From assembly GCA_944372055.1 (NCBI GenBank), contig CALVYF010000001.1, positions 54,384 to 118,383 on the forward strand: a stretch of DNA of 64,000 nucleotides, written 5' to 3'. How positions within the stretch are numbered: position 1 is the stretch's first letter; every line of letters begins with the position of its first letter. The notes under the pieces are model-generated. The model made no database searches. It was not told the origin of the DNA and saw nothing but the letters and a program-made list of their open reading frames with translations. The position numbers and the translations under genes were made by a program. The DNA comes from an uncultured Bacilli bacterium. GTDB taxonomy: Bacteria > Bacillota_I > Bacilli_A > RF39 > UBA660. This document shows, in pieces, positions 2,653-60,578 of this stretch.

Positions 2653-2928
2653 TTACTTATCCTTCTTTTCTTTAGATTCAGTAAATTTCTTCATAATACC
2701 AGCTTTAGAAAATAAATTCTTAACTGTATCAGTAGGAATAGCTCCACTATTAAGCCATTTTAAAGCCACTTCCTCATTGATATTAACTTTAGCTTCTCCA
2801 ACAGGTGCATAAGTACCAATTAATTCAATATATTGACCATCTCTAGGACGTCTAGAGTCAGTAGCAACAATTCTATAAGTAGGTTTCTTTTTAGCACCCA
2901 TTCTTGTTAATCTAATTTTAACTGCCAT
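2653..2928 (-). CDS. rpsP: 30S ribosomal protein S16
   Basis: [35 protein letters not shown]... is a classic S16 N-terminus. The true start is the internal ATG at 2928, preceded by a GGAGGGA RBS. The 122-aa ORF in the track is an upstream over-extension. Confidence 0.9.
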
Positions 2929-3008
2929 AGTATCCCTCCGTTTCTTAAATACAGATATAGTATAATAGAAAAAAAGAGTGCTGTCAACCTTTTTTTGATA
3001 ACAAGCAG

Positions 3009-3033
3009 CAAAAAATAGCACTTATTAGTGCTA
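3009..3033 (-). terminator. intrinsic terminator after cotE
   Basis: Minus-strand RNA AGCACUAAUAAGUGCU followed by AUUUUUUG, just downstream of the cotE stop. Confidence 0.5.
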
Positions 3034-3038
3034 AATAA

Positions 3039-3569
3039 TTAGATTGGATTATCTTGAATAAAGTCATCACTTAACTCTTCATCAAGTGTATCATTCGAAG
3101 TTTCATCAACAATTTCGTCCCATGGGTCTTCTTCCTCATTGGCTTCAATCTTTACTTTAACATCTCCAACTAATTCTATACCAAGTTCTTTTTCAATAGT
3201 ATAGTGTATTTCATGATTATTAATAGTAATATCAGAACAAGTAGGTTGCTTTAGACTACGAACAATGATTTGTTCACCAGTAACATCTTCGTCTCGATTA
3301 CGCATATGTACCATTTCACGGTAAGTTTGCGTCTCTTTAATAACATCTGTCTTAGTATCACCATCATAAGAGTACCAAATATTAACATCATAACTACCAG
3401 AAATAATAATTTGATCCCCTTGTTTTTCCCCATGGAAATTATGATTAATAACCCAACAACCTAAAATTGTAGATGCTTCTTCTTTTAGTGATACAACATG
3501 ATCTGTAGTAAATAACTTTTTACCCTTACCGATAACCGCCTTTGTAACAATTTCTTTATAACTAGACAT
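3039..3569 (-). CDS. cotE: outer spore coat morphogenetic protein CotE-like
   Basis: 176 aa. MSSYKEIVTKAVIGKGKK...ILGCWVINHNF...SGSYDVNIWYSYDGDTKT... followed by a strongly acidic C-terminus aligns closely with my recollection of B. subtilis CotE. miaB(ymcB)-ymcA-cotE synteny matches Bacillus. Confidence 0.65.
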   Translation of the reverse strand: MSSYKEIVTKAVIGKGKKLFTTDHVVSLKEEASTILGCWVINHNFHGEKQGDQIIISGSYDVNIWYSYDGDTKTDVIKETQTYREMVHMRNRDEDVTGEQIIVRSLKQPTCSDITINNHEIHYTIEKELGIELVGDVKVKIEANEEEDPWDEIVDETSNDTLDEELSDDFIQDNPI

Positions 3570-33090: not shown

Positions 33091-33429
33091 TTATCTAAAT
33101 TGACAACAAGATCCGCACTGAACATTACTTACTACATTCTCTTCAGAACAAGTATACTGAGGACGATAAGTATGCCTAAAAATATGATGATTAATAATTC
33201 TAGTATGGATTGGACAAACATGAGGTACTTCATGAACGATTGTCTTATGAATACATTTTTGCTGAACTCCTTCTTGTACTGGACATCCCATATTTGAATT
33301 CATATTCATTCCCATGTTCATCCCATTCATTTCGCTATTCATATTAATATCAACATTCATATCATTATCAACCACATTATTATTCCCTTTAACAGTAGAA
33401 TCAAAATCAAAACTGTTTTGATCAAACAT
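33091..33429 (-). CDS. Cys/His-rich small protein, possible CotD-like inner spore coat protein
   Basis: 112 aa. ...CPVQEGVQQKCIHKTIVHEVPHVCPIHTRIINHHIFRHTYRPQY...CGSCCQ shows the His/Pro/Thr periodicity and terminal Cys cluster I associate with CotD. The N-terminus is Met/Asn-rich. Confidence 0.4.
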   Translation of the reverse strand: MFDQNSFDFDSTVKGNNNVVDNDMNVDINMNSEMNGMNMGMNMNSNMGCPVQEGVQQKCIHKTIVHEVPHVCPIHTRIINHHIFRHTYRPQYTCSEENVVSNVQCGSCCQFR

Positions 33430-33533: not shown

Positions 33534-34841
33534 TTAAAAAGGCAACTTCATATTTCCATTAGAAAACTGTTTCATCATTTTCTTCATTTGATCAAACTGT
33601 TGTAACAACTTATTCACTTCTTGCACCGAAGTACCACTACCATTAGCAATTCTAGTTTTTCGACTAGCTTTAATAATCTCTGGATGTCGTCTTTCTTTTG
33701 GTGTCATAGATAAAACAATAGCTTCAATATGAGCAAGCTGTTTAGGATCAATTTTAACATTATTAAGCCCCATCTTCTTTGCACCAGGAATAAGTTTAAG
33801 TAAATTTTCTAAAGGTCCCAACTTTTTCATCTGTTTCATTGTAGATAAAAAGTCTTCCAAATCAAATTTTCCTTGTTGCATTCTTTTAGCTGTTTTTTCT
33901 GCTTCTTTTTCATCGATAGCTTCCGTTGCTTTTTCCACCAATGAAACAATATCACCCATTCCAAGAATACGTCCTGCCATACGTTCTGGATCAAAAGAAT
34001 CCAGACCATCCAATTTTTCAGATATACCAATAAACTTAATAGGAACATTAGTCAAATGACGAACAGATAAAGCGACCCCTCCTCTAGTGTCACCATCTAA
34101 TTTTGTAAGAACAACACCAGTAAGAGGTAATTTTTCATTAAAACCTGTAATAACATTAATAGCATCTTGACCCATCATTGAATCGATTACTAATAAGATT
34201 TCATCTGGATTTATCTCAGTACGAATATTCTCAAGCTCACCCATCAAATCTTCATCGATATGTAAACGACCTGCTGTATCAACCAAAACATAATCATAAC
34301 CATTCTCTTTTGCATAACTAATAGCATTTTTAGAAATTTCTATAGGATTACCATTACCTTCATCATAAACTTCTATATTTAATTGCTTTCCAATTTGTTT
34401 CAACTGATCAATTGCTGCCGGACGATAAACATCACAGGCAACTAACAAAGGCTTTTTTGCATGCTTTTTTCTTAAAAAATTAGCTAATTTCCCAATCGTA
34501 GTTGTTTTACCAGAACCTTGCAAACCAACTAACATCAAAACGGCTGGATTACCCTTCAAACAAATATCTTCTTGTTCTCCACCAAGTAATTCTGTCAATT
34601 CATCTTTTACAATCTTAACAAACAAATCACCAGGGTTGATACTACTAGCAACTTCTTCTCCTAAAGCCTTTTCTTTAACCGAAGTAGTAAATTCTTTTAC
34701 AACCTTATAATTTACATCTGCTTCTAATAATGCCAATCTAATCTCACGCATCATATCAGAAATATTATCTTCCGTTATTTTGCCATATCCTTTTATTTTA
34801 TGAATCGCATTTTGTAAACGATCTCCTAAACTTTCAAACAT
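33534..34841 (-). CDS. ffh: signal recognition particle protein Ffh
   Basis: N-domain, SRP54 GTPase domain (…VGLQGSGKTTT…DTAGR…TKLDG…) and a Met-rich M-domain. AGGTGA RBS before the ATG at 34841. Confidence 0.95.
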   Translation of the reverse strand: MFESLGDRLQNAIHKIKGYGKITEDNISDMMREIRLALLEADVNYKVVKEFTTSVKEKALGEEVASSINPGDLFVKIVKDELTELLGGEQEDICLKGNPAVLMLVGLQGSGKTTTIGKLANFLRKKHAKKPLLVACDVYRPAAIDQLKQIGKQLNIEVYDEGNGNPIEISKNAISYAKENGYDYVLVDTAGRLHIDEDLMGELENIRTEINPDEILLVIDSMMGQDAINVITGFNEKLPLTGVVLTKLDGDTRGGVALSVRHLTNVPIKFIGISEKLDGLDSFDPERMAGRILGMGDIVSLVEKATEAIDEKEAEKTAKRMQQGKFDLEDFLSTMKQMKKLGPLENLLKLIPGAKKMGLNNVKIDPKQLAHIEAIVLSMTPKERRHPEIIKASRKTRIANGSGTSVQEVNKLLQQFDQMKKMMKQFSNGNMKLPF

Positions 34842-34884
34842 ATAATCACCTAGCATCTATTATACAAAAAAATAAAAAACAAGT

Positions 34885-34912
34885 AAATGAAAAAAGCAGG
34901 AATACCTGCTTA
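34885..34912 (-). terminator. intrinsic terminator after the HerA-like ATPase gene, separating it from ffh
   Basis: Minus-strand RNA AAGCAGGUAUUCCUGCUU followed by UUUUCAUUU. Overlaps the ATPase stop. Confidence 0.5.
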
Positions 34913-37243
34913 TTGATTACCATCTGTAGTAAGTGATACTAACGGTGTACCATTAGGAGTCACTACATCAATAGGATTTACATTTTGACTATTACTAGCA
35001 TCAGAACTACCAAAAGGCATAATAGATGGTTCAGCAGAACTAGTATTCTGATTAACATTTAAATTAGGAATTTCTAAATCTAAAGCAGAATCTTCTGTAA
35101 CCTCTATTAAAGGTTTAGAACTAGCAGGAATCTTACCAAAATCAGTTGGAACTGACGGAGTATCAAAAGAATTTTCTCCCGCTGGAGTATCGATATCATC
35201 ATCCATCTCACCATCACCAAAATCTAAATTGCTAAAATCCTGAAAAACGGAAGAAGTTGTAGTCTTAGGAACAGCATTTGTAACAACATCAGGCATAGCT
35301 TGAGATGATTTTTCTTCCGTTAAATTAAATAATGGTGTATTATTATTTGGAGTTGGATTAGAATCCATACTTGAAGAATTATGATTTAAAGTAGGATTTG
35401 ACATACTATTAGTCATAGACATGGACGAAGTAGTAGGAATCGCTGGAGAACTAACTTGTGTAGAAATACTATTCCTAGACTGACTATTACTATTACCACT
35501 CCATACCGCAACGACATCACAGTTACCACTCCATGGAGCAGGATTAGGCATTTCTAATTTACAAATCAACGGTATCTTAAAGGCCATACCAAATCCTAAA
35601 CACGTACCAGCTTGCAATGTCTTTTGTTTTTCAACAATTTCATCACTAATATTTGGAACCATCTTACGAATATAATCAACATCGGTAGGGTGATTCATCT
35701 TAAAAATCAAGAAATTAGAACATTGAGAAATAACCGTATCAGAAAGTTCTACTGGTCTTTGAGAAATAAGTCCAAGTAAAACACCATACTTACGTCCTTC
35801 TTTAGCAATACGTTCGAAAATATTATAACCAATCAAAAATCTATCCGTATCATTTTGAATATAACGATGTGCTTCTTCAACAACAATATGAAAAGGAATA
35901 CTAGCTCTATCTTTCAATCCTTTTGCAAATTCAAAAACAAGTCTTGAATAAATCTTTGTAATAACTTTTGCAAAATCATCATCGACATCATCCAAATTAA
36001 AATTAACCATTTGATATTTACGACCATTACTAATTAATAAAGAAGATAAATAACTTTCAAGAGAAACATAATCAGAAACATCAAAGAATTTAGCATATTC
36101 CCCAACAATTAAAGCATGTAAACGAACTTTAAGAGTAACAGCATCTCCATAAGTATTTTCATTTCTTAACCAACCCTCACTAATCAAAGTGAAGTTAAGT
36201 GCTTTCTCTAATGTATCTAAAGTATAGAAAACTCCGCCTTTTGGTTCGTAGTTATCATATTCATTCTTAATAAAGGAAGAAACATATTCTGTAAGCAAAA
36301 CACTTTCAGAAAATTGACCTTGAGAATCAATCAAAAAGCACTCACGGAATTTTCTAGTATAACCAATCCCTTGTACTGGGGCTTCCAAATTAAACTGTGG
36401 AGTAGAACAACTTGCTAAAATAGAAAATATTTCATTTCTCTTATTAGGAGATGTTTCATTTGTATAAAGAATTGTCATAATAGCTTTCGCAATTAAATGA
36501 TTTTTATAGTTATTAGCATCCATATCATTTTGAGAAAATATTAATGCCAATTTTAGCATTCTCTCAATAATTGGTAGTTGAGAATGATTCGTAGCCTGTA
36601 ATAATAAAGCTAAGTCACTTGCATTAAGTAACCAAATAGGTAAACGTAATTTTTCACCAATTCCGTCTACTTCATTAGTACTAAAAAAACGATAATGATA
36701 ATTTGGATTTATAGAATTCAAATTCTTAAACGCATTATAATATTCACCTGATGAATCAAAAAGTAATATATTTGCTTTATAAGGAAATAGTCTTTGATCA
36801 TGAAACATATTCTGAAAAAGGCGAGATACACCACAAGATTTACCACTACCACTGTTACCAAAAATAGCAAAGTGATTACTAAAGAAATTATTAACATCTA
36901 AATAAACTGGAAAGTCATTATAAAATGGACTAACACCAAATTTCATATATCCTGCTTTATCTTCTCCAACAATCATAGGAATTTCTGATTGATCAATAAC
37001 ACGAATAGAAGCATCCAAAGCAGGCTTACGAATAGTACCACCAATTAACCTTCCATCAACAATTTCACCCAAAAATCTCGCTTTAACAATATCTTTATCT
37101 AAATCATCAACTTCGCCTAATACCTTCTTGTCTTTATCCTCAAAAACAAGATGTAAATTCATCAAATTAACAGCTAAATTATCTGCATCCTTCAAACGAA
37201 TATTTGCAGAATGATCGCTAATATAAACAATTCTATCAAACAT
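34910..37243 (-). CDS. HerA/FtsK-superfamily P-loop ATPase (HAS-barrel + DUF87-like core) with ~230-aa disordered Ser/Thr/Asn/Pro-rich C-terminal tail
   Basis: 777 aa. An N-terminal ~110-aa beta-rich region is followed by Walker A FGNSGSGKS, a Walker B-like ILLFDSSGEY, then HIVVEEAHRYI and ...LISQRP... blocks characteristic of HerA/DUF87 ATPases. The last ~230 aa (…SGNSNSQSRNSISTQVSSPAIPTTSSMSMTNSMSNPTLNHNSS…) are low complexity. Confidence 0.6.
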   Translation of the reverse strand: MFDRIVYISDHSANIRLKDADNLAVNLMNLHLVFEDKDKKVLGEVDDLDKDIVKARFLGEIVDGRLIGGTIRKPALDASIRVIDQSEIPMIVGEDKAGYMKFGVSPFYNDFPVYLDVNNFFSNHFAIFGNSGSGKSCGVSRLFQNMFHDQRLFPYKANILLFDSSGEYYNAFKNLNSINPNYHYRFFSTNEVDGIGEKLRLPIWLLNASDLALLLQATNHSQLPIIERMLKLALIFSQNDMDANNYKNHLIAKAIMTILYTNETSPNKRNEIFSILASCSTPQFNLEAPVQGIGYTRKFRECFLIDSQGQFSESVLLTEYVSSFIKNEYDNYEPKGGVFYTLDTLEKALNFTLISEGWLRNENTYGDAVTLKVRLHALIVGEYAKFFDVSDYVSLESYLSSLLISNGRKYQMVNFNLDDVDDDFAKVITKIYSRLVFEFAKGLKDRASIPFHIVVEEAHRYIQNDTDRFLIGYNIFERIAKEGRKYGVLLGLISQRPVELSDTVISQCSNFLIFKMNHPTDVDYIRKMVPNISDEIVEKQKTLQAGTCLGFGMAFKIPLICKLEMPNPAPWSGNCDVVAVWSGNSNSQSRNSISTQVSSPAIPTTSSMSMTNSMSNPTLNHNSSSMDSNPTPNNNTPLFNLTEEKSSQAMPDVVTNAVPKTTTSSVFQDFSNLDFGDGEMDDDIDTPAGENSFDTPSVPTDFGKIPASSKPLIEVTEDSALDLEIPNLNVNQNTSSAEPSIMPFGSSDASNSQNVNPIDVVTPNGTPLVSLTTDGNQ

Positions 37244-37304
37244 AATAATACCCCTCTATTCATATTCCCCTATCATATTATAAATTATATCTTTTTTTTT
37301 CACC

Positions 37305-37336
37305 TTTTACAAGCCAAAAAGAAAAAGAACAAAAAC
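37305..37336 (-). terminator. intrinsic terminator after ylxM
   Basis: Minus-strand RNA AGAACAAAGUUUUUGUUCU followed by UUUUCUUUUU. Confidence 0.5.
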
Positions 37337-37343
37337 TTTGTTC

Positions 37344-37637
37344 TTACAAAACATCCTCAATCCGTTTTTTTACATCATCAATAGAAGAAAAATCTAAAGC
37401 TTCCTCTAACTTTTTCTTTTTTTGATAAAGATGTAAAGCATCTTCATATTCTTCTAGCTTAGCAACCGTAATATGAATTTGTTTAAAAATTGCATTACGA
37501 CTAACATCATAAGCATCAGACATCTCACCAAGACTTAAATTATCAAAATAATAATCTTCAAAATACTTCTTTTGTTTCTCAGTAAGTAATCCCTGATACA
37601 AATCATATAACTCTCCATAATAAACAAAATCTTCCAT
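37344..37637 (-). CDS. ylxM: YlxM/UPF0122 helix-turn-helix protein (SRP operon component)
   Basis: 97 aa. ...LTEKQKKYFEDYYFDNLSLGEMSDAYDVSRNAIFKQI... is a sigma-70 region-4-like HTH. Located between ftsY and ffh as in Bacillus. Confidence 0.7.
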   Translation of the reverse strand: MEDFVYYGELYDLYQGLLTEKQKKYFEDYYFDNLSLGEMSDAYDVSRNAIFKQIHITVAKLEEYEDALHLYQKKKKLEEALDFSSIDDVKKRIEDVL

Positions 37638-37638
37638 A

Positions 37639-37956
37639 CTATACTCCTATAAAATGTACTCCAAGATATATAATCAAATCTAAAATCAATAAAATAATTC
37701 CAACAATTGCATATAAAATTGTTGCTTTTTTACGTCGATAAATTATCTGATTATTATATGCCATAACAAGTAAAGTGAGTCCTAAAAACAATTGAAAAAT
37801 ATAAATCATATCATGGTCTACAATATACCAAATAAATAATCCTAAAGTAAAAAAAGTAAGAAAAAGTTGAATATTAATAAAAATAATATTAAATCTAGTG
37901 ACTTTTCTTGGTTGTGTAACTATTGTGTCTTGTTTTATTTCTTTTTTCTTCGTCAT
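37639..37956 (-). CDS. small membrane protein (3 TM), unknown
   Basis: 105 aa hydrophobic protein between ftsY and ylxM; stop and start abut the neighbours. Confidence 0.3.
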   Translation of the reverse strand: MTKKKEIKQDTIVTQPRKVTRFNIIFINIQLFLTFFTLGLFIWYIVDHDMIYIFQLFLGLTLLVMAYNNQIIYRRKKATILYAIVGIILLILDLIIYLGVHFIGV

Positions 37957-37957
37957 T

Positions 37958-38968
37958 TCACATCATATCCTTAAATAATCCATAAATATATTTTTCAATA
38001 TCAAATACTTGTAAATCCTCTTTGGCTTCGCCCAAACCAATAAATTTAACAGGCAATCCCAGTTGCTCTTTTATTGCTAAAACAATTCCACCTTTTGCAG
38101 TCCCATCAAGTTTAGTTAAAACAATACCTGTAATATTAGTAATCTCTTGAAATGCTTTTGCTTGACTAATTCCGTTTTGACCAGTAGTAGCATCAATAAC
38201 TAATAAAGTTTCATGCGGTCCCTCCGGAATAATACCACCAATAACTTTATTCATTTTTTCTAATTCTTTCATCAAATTTACTTTATTTTGCAGGCGACCA
38301 GCAGTATCAATTAAAACAACATCATAACTTTCATTTTTTGCCATCTGACAACCATCATATACAACACTAGCAGGATCACTTCCCTCTTCTTTACCATAAA
38401 AAGAAACACCTACTCTTTCGCTCCAAAGCTTCAATTGTTCTACCGCTCCAGCTCTAAAAGTATCGGCCGCAACTAGCAATACCTTCTTGCCCTCCTGCTT
38501 CATTTTCCAAGCAATTTTCGCAATCGTTGTAGTTTTGCCAACTCCATTGACTCCAACAAATAAAATAACGGTAGGACCATTCTCACAATATTTAATTTTA
38601 CTAGACAAAACCTCATCGCCTACATAGATAATAAATAATTCATCAACAATAATTTCTTTTAATAACTCTGGGTCACTAATCTTTTCTTTTCCAACTCTAT
38701 CTTTTAAACGATCAATAAAGTCCATAACCGTATTAACACCAATATCAGCCATAATCAAAATTTCTTCTAACTCATCAAAATATTCATCATTAATAGTACG
38801 ATATTTATTAGTTAAATTAGCTAACTTAGAAACAAAACCTTCTCTAGACTTACTAAGTCCTTTTTCATAAACCTTTACTTCTTCTGTTTTCTTCTGTTCT
38901 TCTTGCGTTATATTTTTTTCTTGTTTATCAGACTGAAACATAGTCTTTAATTTATTAAAAAATCCCAT
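37958..38968 (-). CDS. ftsY: signal recognition particle receptor FtsY
   Basis: SRP GTPase motifs (…VGVNGVGKTTT…DTAGR…TKLDGTAKGG…). Start at MGFFNKLK with an AGGAGTGGTGA RBS. Confidence 0.9.
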   Translation of the reverse strand: MGFFNKLKTMFQSDKQEKNITQEEQKKTEEVKVYEKGLSKSREGFVSKLANLTNKYRTINDEYFDELEEILIMADIGVNTVMDFIDRLKDRVGKEKISDPELLKEIIVDELFIIYVGDEVLSSKIKYCENGPTVILFVGVNGVGKTTTIAKIAWKMKQEGKKVLLVAADTFRAGAVEQLKLWSERVGVSFYGKEEGSDPASVVYDGCQMAKNESYDVVLIDTAGRLQNKVNLMKELEKMNKVIGGIIPEGPHETLLVIDATTGQNGISQAKAFQEITNITGIVLTKLDGTAKGGIVLAIKEQLGLPVKFIGLGEAKEDLQVFDIEKYIYGLFKDMM

Positions 38969-39033
38969 AATAATCACCACTCCTATTTTAACATAGAAGA
39001 ATGATGTTTACAATCAAGAATATCAACTATATA

Positions 39034-47334: not shown

Positions 47335-47672
47335 AAATATAAATAAGCCATGTTCTGTTCCTGTTTCCAGGCGACAAACATTTATCTACCATCACTGGTC
47401 CTTAACTTCGTTCGTTTCCTCTGTTAAAGCTCTCCTACCAAATTTGGATTTCTCACTCGCGGGGTTTACCACGTTTCACTCTTTCGTTTCCAAAAGCATC
47501 GTCTCTGTGGCACTTTATGGAATAAATCATATCCTAAGACTTAGATCATATCCGCCGTTAGCAAATAGCTACCCTAGGTTATTTTTTCCCTAGGCACGAA
47601 CACTACAATCATCACAGACTGTATGAGCATGGACTTTCCTCTAATATAAAAATATCAGCGTTTGTCTATATA
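47335..47672 (-). ncRNA. rnpB: RNase P RNA, bacterial type B
   Basis: GC-enriched island. The minus-strand RNA contains AGAGGAAAGUCCAUGCUC (P4), GUAGUGUUCGUGCCUAG, AAAGUGCCACAGAGACGA, CGUGGUAAACCCCGCGAGUGAGAAAUCCAAAUUUGGUAGG and ...GGAACAGAACAUGGCUUA. All these blocks match B. subtilis rnpB nearly identically. P2 pairing GACAAAC/GUUUGUC is present. Lies directly downstream of gpsB as in Bacillus. Confidence 0.85.
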
Positions 47673-48014
47673 TTAATTGTCATTATCTTTATTAGTACCA
47701 TATACCATTTTTTCAAGTTGAGAAAGACGTCTTAAAATATCTAAATTAGTAACCTCAGGAACCTCTACATTACTACGAGCAACTTCCATACTCATTTTTG
47801 AATTCCGAAGTTCTTGCTTTAAGCTCATAATCTCACCCAATAAATCAGCTTTTTCTTTCTCTAAATTATTAATGATATTTAAGAACTGTTCATAGTCTCC
47901 AATGATAATATCAAGAAACTGGTCCACTTCTTTTAATCGGTATCCACGAGTATCAATTTTAAACTCTTTTTCCAAAATATCTTGCGGCATAAGTGTAATC
48001 TTATTCTGATACAT
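47673..48014 (-). CDS. gpsB: cell-cycle protein GpsB (DivIVA-domain)
   Basis: ...KITLMPQDILEKEFKIDTRGYRLKEVDQFLDII..DYEQ... matches the GpsB/DivIVA N-terminal domain. 113 aa. Confidence 0.75.
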   Translation of the reverse strand: MYQNKITLMPQDILEKEFKIDTRGYRLKEVDQFLDIIIGDYEQFLNIINNLEKEKADLLGEIMSLKQELRNSKMSMEVARSNVEVPEVTNLDILRRLSQLEKMVYGTNKDNDN

Positions 48015-48334: not shown

Positions 48335-48904
48335 ATGAACTATCCAAATGGAATCAAGAAGCAAAATATGCAATCCCCTATCACATATAGAAACCGAGGA
48401 ATGTCATTAGAAAGCGATCTTAACGAATCCAATGAATATTATAGAGAAATAGATAAAGCATATATATATAAAAAACCAACACCAGTAAAGATTGTAAAAG
48501 TAAACTATCCATCACGTGATAAAGCGGTAATTACAGAGGCTTACTACACAATTCCATCAACTACTGACTATAATGGTTTATACAAAGGAAAATACATTGA
48601 CTTTGAAGCAAAAGAAACAAAAAACAAAACAGCTTTTCCTCTAGCTAATATTCACTCTCACCAAATAAAGCATATAAAAAATATATATAACCATCAAGGA
48701 ATAGTTTTCTTAATTGTAAGATTCATTCATTATAATGAAACATATTTATTATTAGGAAAAGATTTTTTAGAATTTATAGAAAAAGAAAACAGAAAATCAA
48801 TTCCTTATTCTTTTTTTCAAAAAAAAGGATATTTAATCAAAGATGGTTATAGACCGAGAATCGACTATTTAAGTATAGTAGATACTATAATTGGAGGTAT
48901 ATAA
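48335..48904 (+). CDS. recU: Holliday junction resolvase RecU
   Basis: ...GLYKGKYIDFEAKETKNKTAFPLANIHSHQIKH... matches the RecU catalytic region. Upstream of, and overlapping, ponA as in Bacillus. Confidence 0.85.
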   Translation: MNYPNGIKKQNMQSPITYRNRGMSLESDLNESNEYYREIDKAYIYKKPTPVKIVKVNYPSRDKAVITEAYYTIPSTTDYNGLYKGKYIDFEAKETKNKTAFPLANIHSHQIKHIKNIYNHQGIVFLIVRFIHYNETYLLLGKDFLEFIEKENRKSIPYSFFQKKGYLIKDGYRPRIDYLSIVDTIIGGI

Positions 48905-51680
48905 AATGCAGAAAAAAGTAATAAAAAGGAAAAGTGCCCCAAAACAAAGACGAAGTAAAAGTAATAGTGGAAGCACAAAAGAATACAGCATAAAAAGAAA
49001 ACCTCAAACATCATCCAAAGCTAAAAATGAAAATATAAATGTTCAAATAGCTTGTTGGATTGGTTTTGTAGCATTACTATTGCTATGCTATTTAAAACTA
49101 GGGTTAATTTTTACATTAATTACTGCTGTAGGAATTGGAATTATTGTAGGAGTAGCGCACTTACTACGAAAAGCTAAAAATGATAAGAAAAAGAAAAAAA
49201 TTATTAATATTATTCTAATAATTATCTTAGGACTAGGTATTTTATGTTTAGCCTTATTTGCTGCATTCTTAGTCTATATCACAGTTACAGCACCTGAATT
49301 TGATGCTAAAAGGCTAGATAAAAAAGAAATGAGCTTATTCTATGACAAAGACGAAAAGAAATATGCGGAATCAGGAGACGAAAGAAGAGAAAAAATTTCA
49401 TACGAAGAGCTTCCACAAGTGTTTGTAGATGCCCTTGTCGCAACAGAAGATTCAAGGTTCTTCGAACATAATGGATTCGATGCACCAAGATTCCTAAAAG
49501 CAAGTATGGGACAATTGTTAGGAAATTCCGATGCTGGTGGAGCATCAACAATTTCAATGCAAGTAATAAAAAATACAATGACATCAAAAACCGATAGCGG
49601 AATCAAAGGTATTATTCGTAAATTTACAGATATCTATTTAGCCATATTTAAACTAGAAAAAAATTATACCAAAGAACAAATTATTGAATTCTATGTAAAT
49701 AATCATGGACTTGGTGGTATGGTGTATGGAGTAGAAGAAGCTGCTCAAACATACTTTGGAAAAAGTGCAAGCGACCTAAACTTAAGTGAAGCCGCAACAT
49801 TAGCTGGTATGTTCCAAGCACCTACTTACTATAAACCAGATGTTAATCCTGAAAATGCCGAAAAAAGACGTTCTACGGTACTATATTTAATGGTAAGACA
49901 TGGATATATCACCCAAGAAGAAGCAGACATAGCAAATAGTATTCCAGTAGAAGATTTGATAGTAGAGCAAGCAGCATCTTCTGACCCATACCAAGGATAT
50001 CTTGATACAGTAATAAGTGAGCTTGAAGATAAATACAACATTGATCCAAGTAAAACACCTGTAGAAGTTTATACAAACCTAGATAGAAGTAAACAAGAAG
50101 CCGTAAACTCTGTCATGAATGGAGAAACCTATACATGGATTGATGATAAAGTTCAAGCAGGTGTTACTGTTCTAGACTCAGAAACCGGTAAAGTTTTAGC
50201 AATCGGAGCTGGTAGAAATCGTATTGCTGGAGATTGGAACTTTGCAGTAGATAATAAACGTCAACCAGGATCAACTGCAAAACCATTATTCGATTACGGT
50301 CCAGGAATCGAATATAATAACTGGTCTACTTATCAATTATTTGATGATTCTCCATATACATATACAGGAGGCCGTCCAATTAAAAACTGGGATAATGGAT
50401 ACTTTGGAACAATTACTTTAAGACGAGCTTTATCAGCATCACGTAATATCCCAGCATTAAAAGCATTCCAACAAGTAGATAATAATAAAATTAAAGAATT
50501 TGTTACAAACTTAGGTATTACTCCAGAAATTTGTAACAGTGGATATGAATATGATAAAGAAAAAGATGTTTGTATAAATCCAAAGAACAAAACAGATACT
50601 CATAAACCTAACAAAATTCACGAAGCTCATTCTATTGGTGCCTTTAGCCCAGGAGTTTCATCAATGGAAATGGCCGGAGCTTATGCAGCATTCTCTAATG
50701 GCGGATATTATAATGAGCCACATACAATCGAAAAGATTGTATTCCGCGATACGGGAGAAGTAATCGAGTTTGATGGAGAAAAGAAAAAAGTTATGTCTGA
50801 TGCCACTGCATTTATGATATCAGATGTATTACAAGATGTTGCTTTAACTGGTGGCACTCCAACAAATGTTGCTGCTAAAACCGGTACTACAAACTACGAT
50901 TCAGAATACATGGAAAAACATAACCTACCAGGAGATGCAATCAGAGATTCCTGGGTAGTAGGATATTCTACGAAAACAGTTATTGCATTATGGTATGGAT
51001 ATCAGAACAACGATACCACTGGACGCTATGTATTACACAATGTACCAGCAACAATCCAAAAAGATAGAATATTTAATGCCTTAGTAAAAGCTGGAGCCAT
51101 GGAATCAAATAGAGAAGCATTTAAACAACCTTCAAGTGTTGTAAAACTTGGAATCATCTCTGGTTCTAACCCACCTATCGTAGCTGGAAGTGGCTATACT
51201 GGAAGTGTAGTATATGAATACTTCAAAAAAGGACATGAACCAGAGGAAACAGATCTTTCAAGTATAAAATTAGGAAAACCTGGAAATTTAAAAGTATCTT
51301 ATGATGAAAGCAGCAACAAAGTAACGTTGTCATGGTCTGCAGTAGACCCTGGTGATAATAAAAATCTAGGAACATTTGGATATAATGTATATATAGGATC
51401 AACATTAATTGCTTTCACTGAAAATACAAGTTATACTTATACATTAAGTGGTTCTTCTTCTCCATATGGAACATACAAAGTTGTCGCAACATTCAAAGGA
51501 TATAGTGGAGTGCAAGGAACCCCTGCTACCTACACATTAGAAGAACCAGAAGAAGAAGAAGAAATAGATCCATATGAAGAAGAGAAAAAACAATGTGTTG
51601 CTAACGGCGATACTTGGGACAGTACAACTAATACTTGTACACCATCAATTGAGGGTGGAGAAACTCCAGTTACTCCATAA
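48891..51680 (+). CDS. ponA: class A penicillin-binding protein 1A (transglycosylase/transpeptidase) with C-terminal fibronectin-III-like domain
   Basis: GT51 motifs (…EDSRFFEHNGFD…), TPase SxxK (…GSTAKP…), SxN and KTGT motifs. C-terminal region ...LSWSAVDPGDNKNLGTFGYNVYIGS... and an acidic EEPEEEEEIDPYEEE segment. Confidence 0.9.
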   Translation: MEVYKMQKKVIKRKSAPKQRRSKSNSGSTKEYSIKRKPQTSSKAKNENINVQIACWIGFVALLLLCYLKLGLIFTLITAVGIGIIVGVAHLLRKAKNDKKKKKIINIILIIILGLGILCLALFAAFLVYITVTAPEFDAKRLDKKEMSLFYDKDEKKYAESGDERREKISYEELPQVFVDALVATEDSRFFEHNGFDAPRFLKASMGQLLGNSDAGGASTISMQVIKNTMTSKTDSGIKGIIRKFTDIYLAIFKLEKNYTKEQIIEFYVNNHGLGGMVYGVEEAAQTYFGKSASDLNLSEAATLAGMFQAPTYYKPDVNPENAEKRRSTVLYLMVRHGYITQEEADIANSIPVEDLIVEQAASSDPYQGYLDTVISELEDKYNIDPSKTPVEVYTNLDRSKQEAVNSVMNGETYTWIDDKVQAGVTVLDSETGKVLAIGAGRNRIAGDWNFAVDNKRQPGSTAKPLFDYGPGIEYNNWSTYQLFDDSPYTYTGGRPIKNWDNGYFGTITLRRALSASRNIPALKAFQQVDNNKIKEFVTNLGITPEICNSGYEYDKEKDVCINPKNKTDTHKPNKIHEAHSIGAFSPGVSSMEMAGAYAAFSNGGYYNEPHTIEKIVFRDTGEVIEFDGEKKKVMSDATAFMISDVLQDVALTGGTPTNVAAKTGTTNYDSEYMEKHNLPGDAIRDSWVVGYSTKTVIALWYGYQNNDTTGRYVLHNVPATIQKDRIFNALVKAGAMESNREAFKQPSSVVKLGIISGSNPPIVAGSGYTGSVVYEYFKKGHEPEETDLSSIKLGKPGNLKVSYDESSNKVTLSWSAVDPGDNKNLGTFGYNVYIGSTLIAFTENTSYTYTLSGSSSPYGTYKVVATFKGYSGVQGTPATYTLEEPEEEEEIDPYEEEKKQCVANGDTWDSTTNTCTPSIEGGETPVTP

Positions 51681-59032: not shown

Positions 59033-59102
59033 AAGAGACGATATAAAATCGTTCTTTTTTTTTAATTATAATCATAAAGTTAACTGTATAAGGAGAATGT
59101 GT

Positions 59103-60578
59103 ATGGATAAACATGAAATTATTAAAAATATTGCTAAAAGAAGTGGCGGGGATATTTATTTAGGTGTCGTTGGAGCCGTAAGAACTGGAAAATCTACTTT
59201 TATTAAAAGGATGGTGGAAACATTAATCGTTCCAAATATTGAAGATGAATATGAGAGAAAAAGAGCATTAGATGAAATACCGCAAAGTGCCGCCGGGAAA
59301 ACCATCATGACAACAGAACCAAAATTCGTACCAAATAACACTGCAAAAATAAAAATAGATGATTTCACTTGCAACATTAGATTAATAGACTGCGTAGGAT
59401 ATATGATTGACAAAGCCCAAGGAGCGACAGACGAAAACGGGCCGAGAATGGTAAAAACTCCTTGGTATACAGAAGAAATTCCATTCGTAGAGGCAGCAGA
59501 AATAGGAACCGAAAAAGTAATTAAAGACCATTCTACTATCGGGATTGTTGTAACAACAGATGGATCCATTGGAGATTTTGAACGAAGTGACTACTTAGAA
59601 GCAGAAACGAGAGTCATTGAGGAACTAAAAAATATTGGCAAGCCATTTATCGTAATATTAAATTCTACTCACCCAACCCTACCAGAAACACAAAGATTAG
59701 CAGAATCACTAAAAGAAGAGCATCAAGTTCCAGTACTTCCTATTAGTATTGAAGCAATGAATGAAAAAGATATGTACGATATTTTAAGAGAAGCATTATA
59801 TGAATTCCCTGTATTAGAGGTAAAAGTTAACATGCCGGAATGGATTACCATTTTAAACCCAGATCACCCTGTAAAACAAAGTTATATAAATGCAATTAAA
59901 GAAAGCGTAGTAGAAATAGACAAACTAAAAGATATAGAACATATTACAGATCATTTCTTAAATAACGAAATGATTGAAAAAGCTTATCTTTCAGAAGTAG
60001 ACCCTTCTACTGGAATAATCACTATTACCCTAACTGCACCTGCTGATTTATATAACCAAACACTAACAGAAATTATAAAAATCGATGTAAAAAGTAAAGC
60101 AGACTTGCTAGCGTTATTTCAAGAATATAACACTGCAAAAAAAGAATATGATCAAATTAAATATGCATTAAAAATGGTAAAACAAACAGGATATGGTGTA
60201 GCAACCCCATCCATAGAAGACATGAAATTAGATAAGCCGGAAATTATTAAACAAGGTCCACGATATGGCATCAAATTAAAAGCCGTCGCGCCGTCAATTC
60301 ATATGATACGCGTCGATGTAGAATCAACCTTTGAACCAATTATAGGAAGTGAAGTGCAAAGTAAAGAATTAATTGACTATTTAACTAAAGACAAAGATAA
60401 AAGTCCAAATGAGATTTGGAAAAGTGAAATATTTGGTCGCAGCCTAGACTCCATTGTTCAAGAAGGAATCCAAGCAAAAATAAATATGATGCCGGATAAT
60501 ATCCGATTAAAGCTTCAAGCAACTTTAACAAAAGTAGTAAATAAAGGTTCAAATAATATGATTGCTATTGTAATATAA
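59103..60578 (+). CDS. spoIVA: stage IV sporulation protein A (spore coat morphogenetic ATPase)
   Basis: MDKHEIIKNIAKRSGGDIYLGVVGAVRTGKSTFIKRMVE... is near-identical in pattern to the B. subtilis SpoIVA N-terminus including Walker A. Full length about 491 aa. AAGGAGA RBS. Confidence 0.9.
   Translation: MDKHEIIKNIAKRSGGDIYLGVVGAVRTGKSTFIKRMVETLIVPNIEDEYERKRALDEIPQSAAGKTIMTTEPKFVPNNTAKIKIDDFTCNIRLIDCVGYMIDKAQGATDENGPRMVKTPWYTEEIPFVEAAEIGTEKVIKDHSTIGIVVTTDGSIGDFERSDYLEAETRVIEELKNIGKPFIVILNSTHPTLPETQRLAESLKEEHQVPVLPISIEAMNEKDMYDILREALYEFPVLEVKVNMPEWITILNPDHPVKQSYINAIKESVVEIDKLKDIEHITDHFLNNEMIEKAYLSEVDPSTGIITITLTAPADLYNQTLTEIIKIDVKSKADLLALFQEYNTAKKEYDQIKYALKMVKQTGYGVATPSIEDMKLDKPEIIKQGPRYGIKLKAVAPSIHMIRVDVESTFEPIIGSEVQSKELIDYLTKDKDKSPNEIWKSEIFGRSLDSIVQEGIQAKINMMPDNIRLKLQATLTKVVNKGSNNMIAIVI

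Follow-up and report, generated by a model that had tools for sequence, protein, structure and literature searches.

The stretch of DNA analyzed here (the window; 64,000 nucleotides [nt] of contig CALVYF010000001.1, from an uncultured Bacilli bacterium of the RF39 lineage) carries a gene for a stand-alone ATPase of the HerA family within its ftsY-ylxM-ffh signal recognition particle (SRP) gene cluster. The gene is a complete open reading frame (ORF) on the minus strand, from 34910 to 37243 (stop codon at 34910 to 34912), recognized by ORF calling, profile matches, and a fold search. It encodes 777 amino acids (aa), fills the space between ffh and ylxM, and is the only ORF there. Its neighbors lie on the same strand, with ylxM (37344 to 37637; PF04297, 83 bits) directly upstream, ftsY (37958 to 38980) farther upstream, and ffh (33534 to 34856 in a mechanical ORF call; SRP54 domains) downstream. 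In Bacillus subtilis, ylxM is followed directly by ffh. An exact-sequence lookup of the 777-aa protein returned no record, and gene context was therefore taken from relatives. The comparisons described below leave little doubt that this is a conserved housekeeping HerA that stands alone and has its own transcription unit.

A preliminary description, made from the sequence alone, had assigned the protein to the HerA/DUF87-type P-loop ATPases, and this held up. The Pfam DUF87/HerA central domain (PF01935) scored 77.5 bits against a cutoff of 23.2, and the PADLOC HerA model PDLC04102 scored 363 bits over residues 94 to 592; a PADLOC system call requires a partner gene besides such a match. A phmmer search of the PDB gave nine significant matches (E value of ≤7e-8), all of them HerA or HerA-type ATPases, including DUF4297-HerA (9c1m, 8xau, and 8ziq), Sir2-HerA (8wiv and 8j4u), Sulfolobus HerA (4d2i), a HerA-NurA complex (9x1l), and TdpA (8wet). 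The NCBIfam HerA models scored 91 to 170 bits, and none reached its equivalog cutoff of 800 to 970; this held for the repair HerAs (NF040937, 112 bits versus 800; NF040819, 91 bits versus 970) and for the anti-phage HerAs (NF042944, 170 bits versus 850; NF042943, 133 bits versus 800). No NCBIfam model is dedicated to this stand-alone family. The VirB4-like model NF045971 scored 17 bits against a cutoff of 325, and no conjugation genes lie near the HerA gene. Pfam found no match to PF01580 (FtsK_SpoIIIE), FtsK_gamma, or FtsK_4TM in the 777-aa protein, and some relatives carry only "faint" precomputed PF01580 matches.

The four sequence blocks named in the preliminary description are all present. 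Walker A (GNSGSGKS, with K135) occupies residues 129 to 136 (36836 to 36859), the ILLFDSSGE block residues 159 to 167, and Walker B (HIVVEEAHRY) residues 452 to 461 (35861 to 35890). A KEGRKYG segment and ISQRP (residues 493 to 497) follow at residues 481 to 497 (35753 to 35803). Within a 44-sequence alignment (A2), G129, G132, G134, K135, and S136 of Walker A, E456, E457, A458, H459, R460, and Y461 of Walker B, and the residues of the KEGRKYG/ISQRP segment are invariant. The Walker A lysine of E. coli DUF4297-HerA is K157, and its trans-acting finger is formed by R455/K456 (PMC11291478). The phmmer alignment to 8xau places EGRKYG opposite residues 455 to 457, so that R484 and K485 of the window protein align with R455 and K456. 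Because Walker A, Walker B, and the R/K finger are all invariant in A2, the ATPase is, judging by its sequence, most likely catalytically active.

An AlphaFold2 monomer prediction built on A2 was confident throughout the core (predicted local distance difference test [pLDDT] values of ~85 to 90). All three parts of the HerA architecture are there: a beta-barrel at the N terminus (strands within residues 2 to 82), a RecA-like core, and an insertion made of helices (within residues 208 to 403). When the model was compared with the PDB by Foldseek, the first 50 matches were all HerA chains, aligned over ~600 to 660 columns, that is, the whole core, with target-normalized template modeling scores of 0.55 to 0.76. 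The HAS-barrel-like N-domain proposed earlier is thus borne out by the model strands and the full-core alignments; it spans residues 1 to ~95 (36959 to 37243). The helical insertion forms a subdomain within the ATPase core at residues ~205 to 420 (35984 to 36631). In E. coli DUF4297-HerA the insertion subdomain contacts DNA, and solved HerA structures hold double-stranded DNA (dsDNA) in the pore (PMC11291478). The match between the helical insertion of the window protein and that DNA-contacting subdomain is one of whole subdomains, not residue by residue. The 777-aa protein has no transmembrane segment.

To follow the gene through its clade, we scanned one genome per species. Relatives were encoded in 176 genomes, and the best 80 loci (64 to 94% identity over the best segment) were kept. 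They come from gut metagenome-assembled genomes (MAGs) labeled uncultured Bacilli, Tenericutes, "Mycoplasma sp. CAG:877," "Candidatus Faecimonas," and "Candidatus Onthousia." The nearest relative genome is that of "Ca. Faecimonas intestinavium" (GTDB genus CAG-877, order RF39, family CAG-611); for the sister species "Ca. F. gallistercoris," the genome size is ~1.4 Mb and the GC content ~28% (PMC8035907). When the window neighbors were used as tblastn queries, the order ftsY-(membrane protein)-ylxM-HerA-ffh was found wherever the flank was long enough. The GC content of the HerA gene equals that of its neighbors, and recent horizontal acquisition was rejected on that ground and on the lack of close relatives on plasmids, phages, and viral contigs. 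The fixed order, the matching GC content, and the contiguity of ylxM and ffh in B. subtilis point to a single insertion at the base of the clade that has been fixed since. The gene thus does lie between ylxM and ffh, as the preliminary description had it, but the insertion is neither recent nor mobile; it is an ancient event fixed clade-wide. The preliminary description had named a known housekeeping factor universal to the clade as something that would speak against it; this applies by half, as the gene is universal in the clade but is not a known factor. One MAG (CALVUV01) carries two copies of the gene on two contigs (L078 and L080; best-segment identities to the window protein of 80% and 67%), which may reflect a paralog or a mixed bin.

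The HerA core (residues 1 to 583) had a median identity to the window protein of 83.5% (minimum, 78%), and its beta-barrel region was 73 to 85% identical across the 80 species. Within the same loci, which makes the comparison a fair one, the corresponding identities were 88% for Ffh, 87% for RNase J, 74% for FtsY, 55% for YlxM, 55% for RecX, and 52% for RpoZ. The ratio of nonsynonymous to synonymous substitution rates (dN/dS; Nei-Gojobori method, ten species pairs) for the core was 0.02 to 0.03 in most pairs, with a range of 0 to 0.07. These sequence comparisons show very strong purifying selection on the core, and the 2.3-kb gene has been retained despite a genome size of ~1.4 Mb. This is how a housekeeping gene of the essential type behaves, and a defense gene does not.

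The gene also appears to be transcribed on its own. An intrinsic terminator with a clear 7-bp GC-containing stem at 34894 to 34911 (AAGCAGG-TATT-CCTGCTT plus a T-run; 34884 to 34911, minus strand; −9.9 kcal/mol, z = −4.5) overlaps the HerA stop codon. A hairpin with a T-run occurs between HerA and ffh in all 50 loci with a short gap (36 to 165 nt; median, ~56 nt), and its stems vary in sequence yet remain complementary. On the other side, right after the ylxM stop codon, a weak AT-rich hairpin with a U-run (37316 to 37345, minus strand; −6.5 kcal/mol, z = −2.0) is a putative terminator or attenuator, and by loose criteria a hairpin with a T-run is found there in 41 of 55 loci. Of the two clean terminators previously described, then, the one on the HerA side stands, while the one on the ylxM side is weaker. 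Upstream of HerA, a sigma-A-type promoter-like element (TTGTAA-17-TATAAT; 37284 to 37312, minus strand) is conserved in position. It scored ≥9/12 in 79 of 79 loci, against mostly 7 to 8 for random windows, and ended ~37 to 43 nt 5′ of the ATG in the loci listed. In seven related species a gene on the opposite strand (~285 aa) separates ylxM from HerA; there the ylxM promoter cannot serve HerA, which must have one of its own.

A separate promoter for ffh within the short gap, as postulated earlier, is likewise indicated. A promoter-like element (TTTACT-17-TATAAT; 34859 to 34887, minus strand) lies upstream of ffh, its end ~17 nt from the probable start codon at 34841; in related loci this distance is 17 to 19 nt. 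A start at 34841 (MFESLGDRL), which is conserved, is more likely than the called one at 34856 (MLGDYMFESL), and with it the leader downstream of the TATAAT (34859 to 34864) is very short. The comparison across loci therefore supports the independent unit of the preliminary description, with HerA as a single-gene transcription unit, predicted from sequence, between ylxM and ffh. An Rfam scan of the intergenic regions flanking the HerA gene detected no regulatory RNA.

The gaps on both sides of HerA are repeated insertion points in related species. The opposite-strand ORF of ~285 aa occupies the ylxM-HerA gap in loci L005, L011, L013, L014, L015, L042, and L072, and a three-gene block (a gene of ~410 aa, fmt, and a membrane protein gene of ~240 aa) occupies the HerA-ffh gap in L067, L074, L076, and L080. 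Zinc-ribbon membrane proteins are found in a HerA-flanking gap in other loci. A conserved hidden partner ORF in the widened gaps was considered and rejected, as the inserted genes differ between lineages.

Beyond its core the protein has a disordered, acidic tail rich in Ser, Asn, Thr, and Pro (residues 584 to 777; 34913 to 35494, minus strand). Sequence conservation ends near residue 583, and pLDDT values fall below 50 for residues 575 to 777, indicating disorder. The preliminary description was right about the disorder, but the tail measures ~195 to 203 aa, not ~230 aa. It holds 24 Asp and Glu residues against 5 Lys and Arg. All 80 complete homologs have a tail, which follows a conserved ...PNPAPWSGNCDVVxxW segment and ranges from 37 to 372 aa (median, 174). 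These tails are rich in Ser, Asn, Thr, Pro, and Val and are acidic in all but one species, with a net charge of mostly −8 to −42. They are hypervariable and can be aligned among close relatives only; in the same ten species pairs used for the core, tail dN/dS was 0.23 to 0.76.

What the tails share is a short motif, P-[LI]-[VIL]-x-[LIVFM], observed 73 times compared with 5.8 ± 2.3 in shuffled tails. It was found in 46 of the 80 species and lay within the last 16 residues in 39; examples are KPLIEVTE, GTPLVSLT, and TDTGVPLVD. The window protein carries two instances, KPLIEVTE internally (residues 710 to 717; 35093 to 35116) and GTPLVSLT near the C terminus (residues 765 to 772; 34928 to 34951). 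The DFG patches to which attention had been drawn are shared by close relatives only; what is conserved more widely is the P-[LI]-[VIL]-x-hydrophobic motif. Other tail ends also combine hydrophobic and acidic residues (PIPEINI in 10 species, LNIDDIIN in 9, and ...DDDLGPDFS-like ends in 11). With its disorder and with short motifs both at its end and farther in, the tail has the look of a flexible tether to a binding partner.

No effector gene was found near the HerA gene. As the preliminary description stated, it has no adjacent partner; no NurA, Sir2, or DUF4297 gene lies beside it or elsewhere in the 64-kb window. The 80 RF39 loci were checked for flanking genes and enlarged gaps only, and these gaps did not contain NurA. 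On plasmids, the best relatives are 27 to 31% identical to the window protein. Two of them (28% identity) served as a positive control, and in both the HerA gene comes immediately after a SIR2-family gene and overlaps it. A phage collection gave no meaningful match, and relatives on IMG/VR viral contigs reached at most ~32% identity over most of their length, with none aligned from residue 1. The patchy, variable-locus distribution of defense genes was not seen: the locus is fixed, and neither the plasmid nor the phage nor the IMG/VR collection contained a member of the family.

We searched 1.84 billion cluster representatives exhaustively with HMMER and obtained 4,501 relatives (E value of ≤1e-3), which fall into clear tiers. 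The clade of the window protein is reduced there to two full-length 50%-identity clusters (75 to 79% identical). Members of the 40 to 45% identity tier align from residue 1 to ~585, and most are ~590 aa long and tail-less; the tier at ≤35% includes proteins with longer N termini, as in defense HerAs. A profile search found many members of the 40 to 50% tier. Every one came from a metagenome or a MAG, and none had a more specific name than "DUF87 domain-containing protein [Bacilli bacterium]." Clustering gave four subfamilies. In the 13 relatives for which gene context was annotated, HerA was always solitary amid housekeeping genes, with no Sir2, DUF4297, or NurA nearby. HerA lies directly after yqeG-yqeH in subfamily 3 (3/3 contexts), beside an LtaS-like gene in subfamily 2 (1/1), and directly upstream of sepF-divIVA in subfamily 4 (6/6). 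Farther out, the subfamily 4 neighbors vary, both upstream (a restriction enzyme, a deacetylase, PP2C, M16 peptidases, and proteins without assignment) and downstream (ftsK, ileS, an ion exchanger, and dnaE); ftsK or dnaE is often near, and in L094 the subfamily 4 gene is also next to ftsK.

Several subfamily 4 lineages have gained disordered extensions independently, either N-terminal (~115 to 185 aa) or C-terminal and rich in Pro and Gln. The N-terminal extensions of three lineages start with MGLF[GD]E. In the relatives P0126, P0281, and P0338, a disordered N-terminal extension of 156 to 186 aa replaces the C-terminal tail, and its MGLF[GD]E[NK]L start is possibly a docking or membrane-targeting peptide. 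One 582-aa relative (P0133; 35% identity over its full length) has degenerate motifs (EKAD for EEAH, EGSKYG for EGRKYG, and VQKV for SQRP) and, on these sequence grounds, possibly represents an inactive paralogous lineage of the solitary family. A sepF or divIVA gene near HerA was also sought in the window by tblastn with the relatives' SepF and DivIVA proteins, and nothing was found. A literature search did not link HerA/DUF87 proteins with SepF, DivIVA, cell division, or Bacilli housekeeping, which is suggestive but not proof.

We favor, with a probability of about 45%, the explanation that the protein is a vegetative housekeeping HerA acting as a tail-tethered, hexameric DNA motor linked to division. 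Because of its homology with solved DNA-bound HerA structures, it would form a hexameric ring that hydrolyzes ATP and moves along dsDNA threaded through its central pore; translocation of DNA, argued by analogy, seems to us slightly better than an even bet. Since the gene has no nuclease or Sir2 effector, it would not destroy DNA; its output would be the movement or clearance of DNA as such. The tail would serve as a flexible tether, with its short motifs attaching the motor to a partner, most plausibly in the cell division or chromosome segregation machinery, in a role analogous to that of the soluble FtsK-like translocase SftA of B. subtilis. The link to division or segregation, suggested by the sepF-divIVA adjacency of subfamily 4 together with the tether-like tail, is held tentatively. 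Tethering to the divisome had been offered earlier as speculation, and the sister subfamily fixed beside sepF-divIVA lends it indirect support. A broader and doubtful proposal concerns a whole class of so far overlooked housekeeping HerAs across RF39 and its sister lineages (uncultured, small-genome, spore-forming gut Bacilli). These would be partner-less hexameric pumps that short motifs recruit to the division apparatus, where they clear or segregate the chromosome; recruitment would run through the tail or, in other lineages, the N-terminal extension, to the SepF, DivIVA, or FtsA side.

Several observations weigh against a division-linked motor. The sepF gene of subfamily 4 loci is preceded by an extended −10 promoter of its own, and a terminator lies between HerA and sepF in 2 of 6 loci; the link is thus one of adjacency, not of proven cotranscription, and could be synteny inherited within one clade. 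The neighbors differ by subfamily (SRP genes, an LtaS-like gene, yqeG-yqeH, or sepF-divIVA), with no common neighborhood. Canonical FtsK is also encoded in subfamily 4 genomes, so HerA does not simply replace it. An FtsZ C-terminal-peptide-like pattern was not enriched in the 80 tails; mimicry of that peptide or of the SSB tip was dropped as an explanation for the tails in general when the pattern "acidic run, hydrophobic, P, x, F" occurred 5 times versus 2.3 in shuffled tails, and ~11 species nonetheless end in an acidic ...DF(S/A) tip. Lastly, the 80 loci are the best of 176, and the most divergent members of the clade lie outside the sample.

The strongest competitor, though clearly a less likely one, is a motor for DNA repair or recombination resembling archaeal and Deinococcus HerA-NurA, which would act on DNA ends or recombination intermediates and recruit a remotely encoded nuclease through the tail motifs. 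In both sequence and fold the window protein resembles archaeal HerA (4d2i and 9x1m), and it scores 91 to 112 bits with the NCBIfam repair-HerA models, figures that are nevertheless far below the cutoffs of 800 to 970. Recombination and replication genes are also found in the region, with recX 2 kb away, recA, recU, dnaD, and ssb in the wider region, and dnaE near relatives, but these follow ordinary Bacillus-like synteny and are not specifically tied to HerA. Neither the window nor the 13 annotated contexts of relatives have NurA or a dedicated nuclease beside the gene.

It is improbable that the protein is instead a ring ATPase of the SRP pathway that handles proteins or ribonucleoproteins, perhaps a secretion or unfolding motor like VirB4, VirD4, or EssC, although such a role would account for the gene's position between ylxM and ffh. 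The FtsK-HerA superfamily includes protein secretion ATPases, the gene stays within the ftsY-ylxM-ffh cluster throughout the clade, and the tail motifs are hydrophobic and strand-like. However, the gene's own promoter and terminator indicate that it is not cotranscribed with ffh, its relatives in other clades do not adjoin SRP genes, the VirB4-like match is negligible, and the protein comes with neither a transmembrane segment nor a secretion system neighbor. Least probable of all is an anti-phage ATPase of the Sir2-HerA or DUF4297-HerA type with a remote or lost effector: defense HerAs are its nearest solved structures and profile models and the plasmid relatives follow SIR2 genes directly, but those relatives are only 27 to 31% identical, the best anti-phage model reached 170 bits versus 850, no effector lies in the window, no family member occurs on plasmids, phages, or IMG/VR contigs, and, where defense genes are usually patchy and fast-evolving, this gene has a clade-fixed position and an Ffh-like core with a dN/dS of ~0.02 to 0.03.

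The remainder of the window contains housekeeping and sporulation genes only: rpsP, cotE, miaB, serS, penicillin-binding protein (PBP) genes, a sortase gene, ssb, prsA, recX, rpoZ, rnj, rny, a Mur ligase gene, recA, pgsA, RNase P RNA, a GpsB-like gene, recU-ponA, nth, dnaD, cca, hup, der, and spoIVA. Profile matches to CotE (3039 to 3569, minus strand; 162 bits) and SpoIVA (59097 to 60578, plus strand; 364 bits), along with the Mur ligase, a class A PBP, and D,D-carboxypeptidases encoded in the window, indicate that the RF39 organism is apparently walled and spore-forming; several of its relatives are recorded as "Tenericutes" or "Mycoplasma." A short GpsB-like DivIVA-domain gene (47673 to 48014) lies 10 kb from HerA, beside class B RNase P RNA (47339 to 47674, minus strand; 278 bits), and the recU-ponA pair (48335 to 51680) stands with both in ordinary Bacillus-like synteny.

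Closer to HerA, a gene for a predicted 105-aa membrane protein (37639 to 37956, minus strand) sits between ftsY and ylxM; it occurs in only some related loci, and its product has no significant family match. Immediately 3′ of ffh is an ORF of 112 aa (33091 to 33429, minus strand) whose N-terminal half is rich in Asn and Met and whose C-terminal half is rich in Cys and His (...HKTIVHEVPHVCPIHTRIINHHIFRHTY...). It keeps its place in most related loci (median identity of 69%; 40 loci) and matched no Pfam or NCBIfam model; it may resemble CotD-like spore coat proteins. In B. subtilis, rpsP comes after ffh. Here rpsP (ribosomal protein S16; 2653 to 3021, minus strand) is ~30 kb from ffh, and the operon downstream of ffh has therefore likewise been rearranged in the clade, to ffh-orf112-rpoZ-recX.

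HerA itself is a known machine; what appears to be new is that it occurs here without a partner, in a housekeeping form that carries a disordered, tether-like tail. The uses of HerA in the literature that we found are end resection with NurA and service as the scaffold and motor of abortive-infection defense systems. The present family indicates a third, without a partner, with a core as conserved as Ffh, and kept in genomes of ~1.4 Mb from which much else has disappeared. It offers a clean setting for studying the HerA ring without an effector, in which two of the four subfamilies have fixed neighbors (SRP genes and sepF-divIVA), and its tail illustrates how a probable tether can be disordered and hypervariable and yet bear conserved short motifs. 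The family may help explain how abundant uncultured gut bacteria divide. Under the broader, class-wide proposal, the housekeeping HerA could be the ancestral stock of the defense HerAs, or the reverse.

Among known systems, DUF4297-HerA and Sir2-HerA (Nezha; 9c1m, 8xau, 8ziq, 8wiv, 8j4u, and 8su9) are the best matches to the window protein in both sequence and structure, sharing the three-domain fold, Walker A and B, the EGRKYG finger, and the insertion. Identity is only ~17 to 31%, however, and those proteins (550 to 700 aa) do not have the long disordered acidic tail; the window gene, in turn, has no adjacent effector, holds a fixed housekeeping position, and evolves as slowly as that of Ffh. 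HerA-NurA of Sulfolobus (4d2i) and Thermococcus (9x1m) shares the HAS-barrel and the RecA-like hexameric DNA translocase fold, whereas the larger helical insertion and the disordered tail belong to the window protein, whose gene has no NurA beside it. SftA and FtsK/SpoIIIE offer a functional analogy only: like HerA, they are ring ATPases of the FtsK-HerA superfamily, and their substrate is chromosomal DNA during division, while the window protein belongs to the HerA branch, not the FtsK branch, and has neither a gamma domain nor a membrane domain. In FtsK a disordered linker of great length joins the motor to its anchoring module, whereas SftA, a soluble protein, is brought to the septum by recruitment. 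A tail-tethered housekeeping HerA, if the broader, class-wide proposal is correct, would add a third bacterial solution to those of FtsK/SpoIIIE and SftA.

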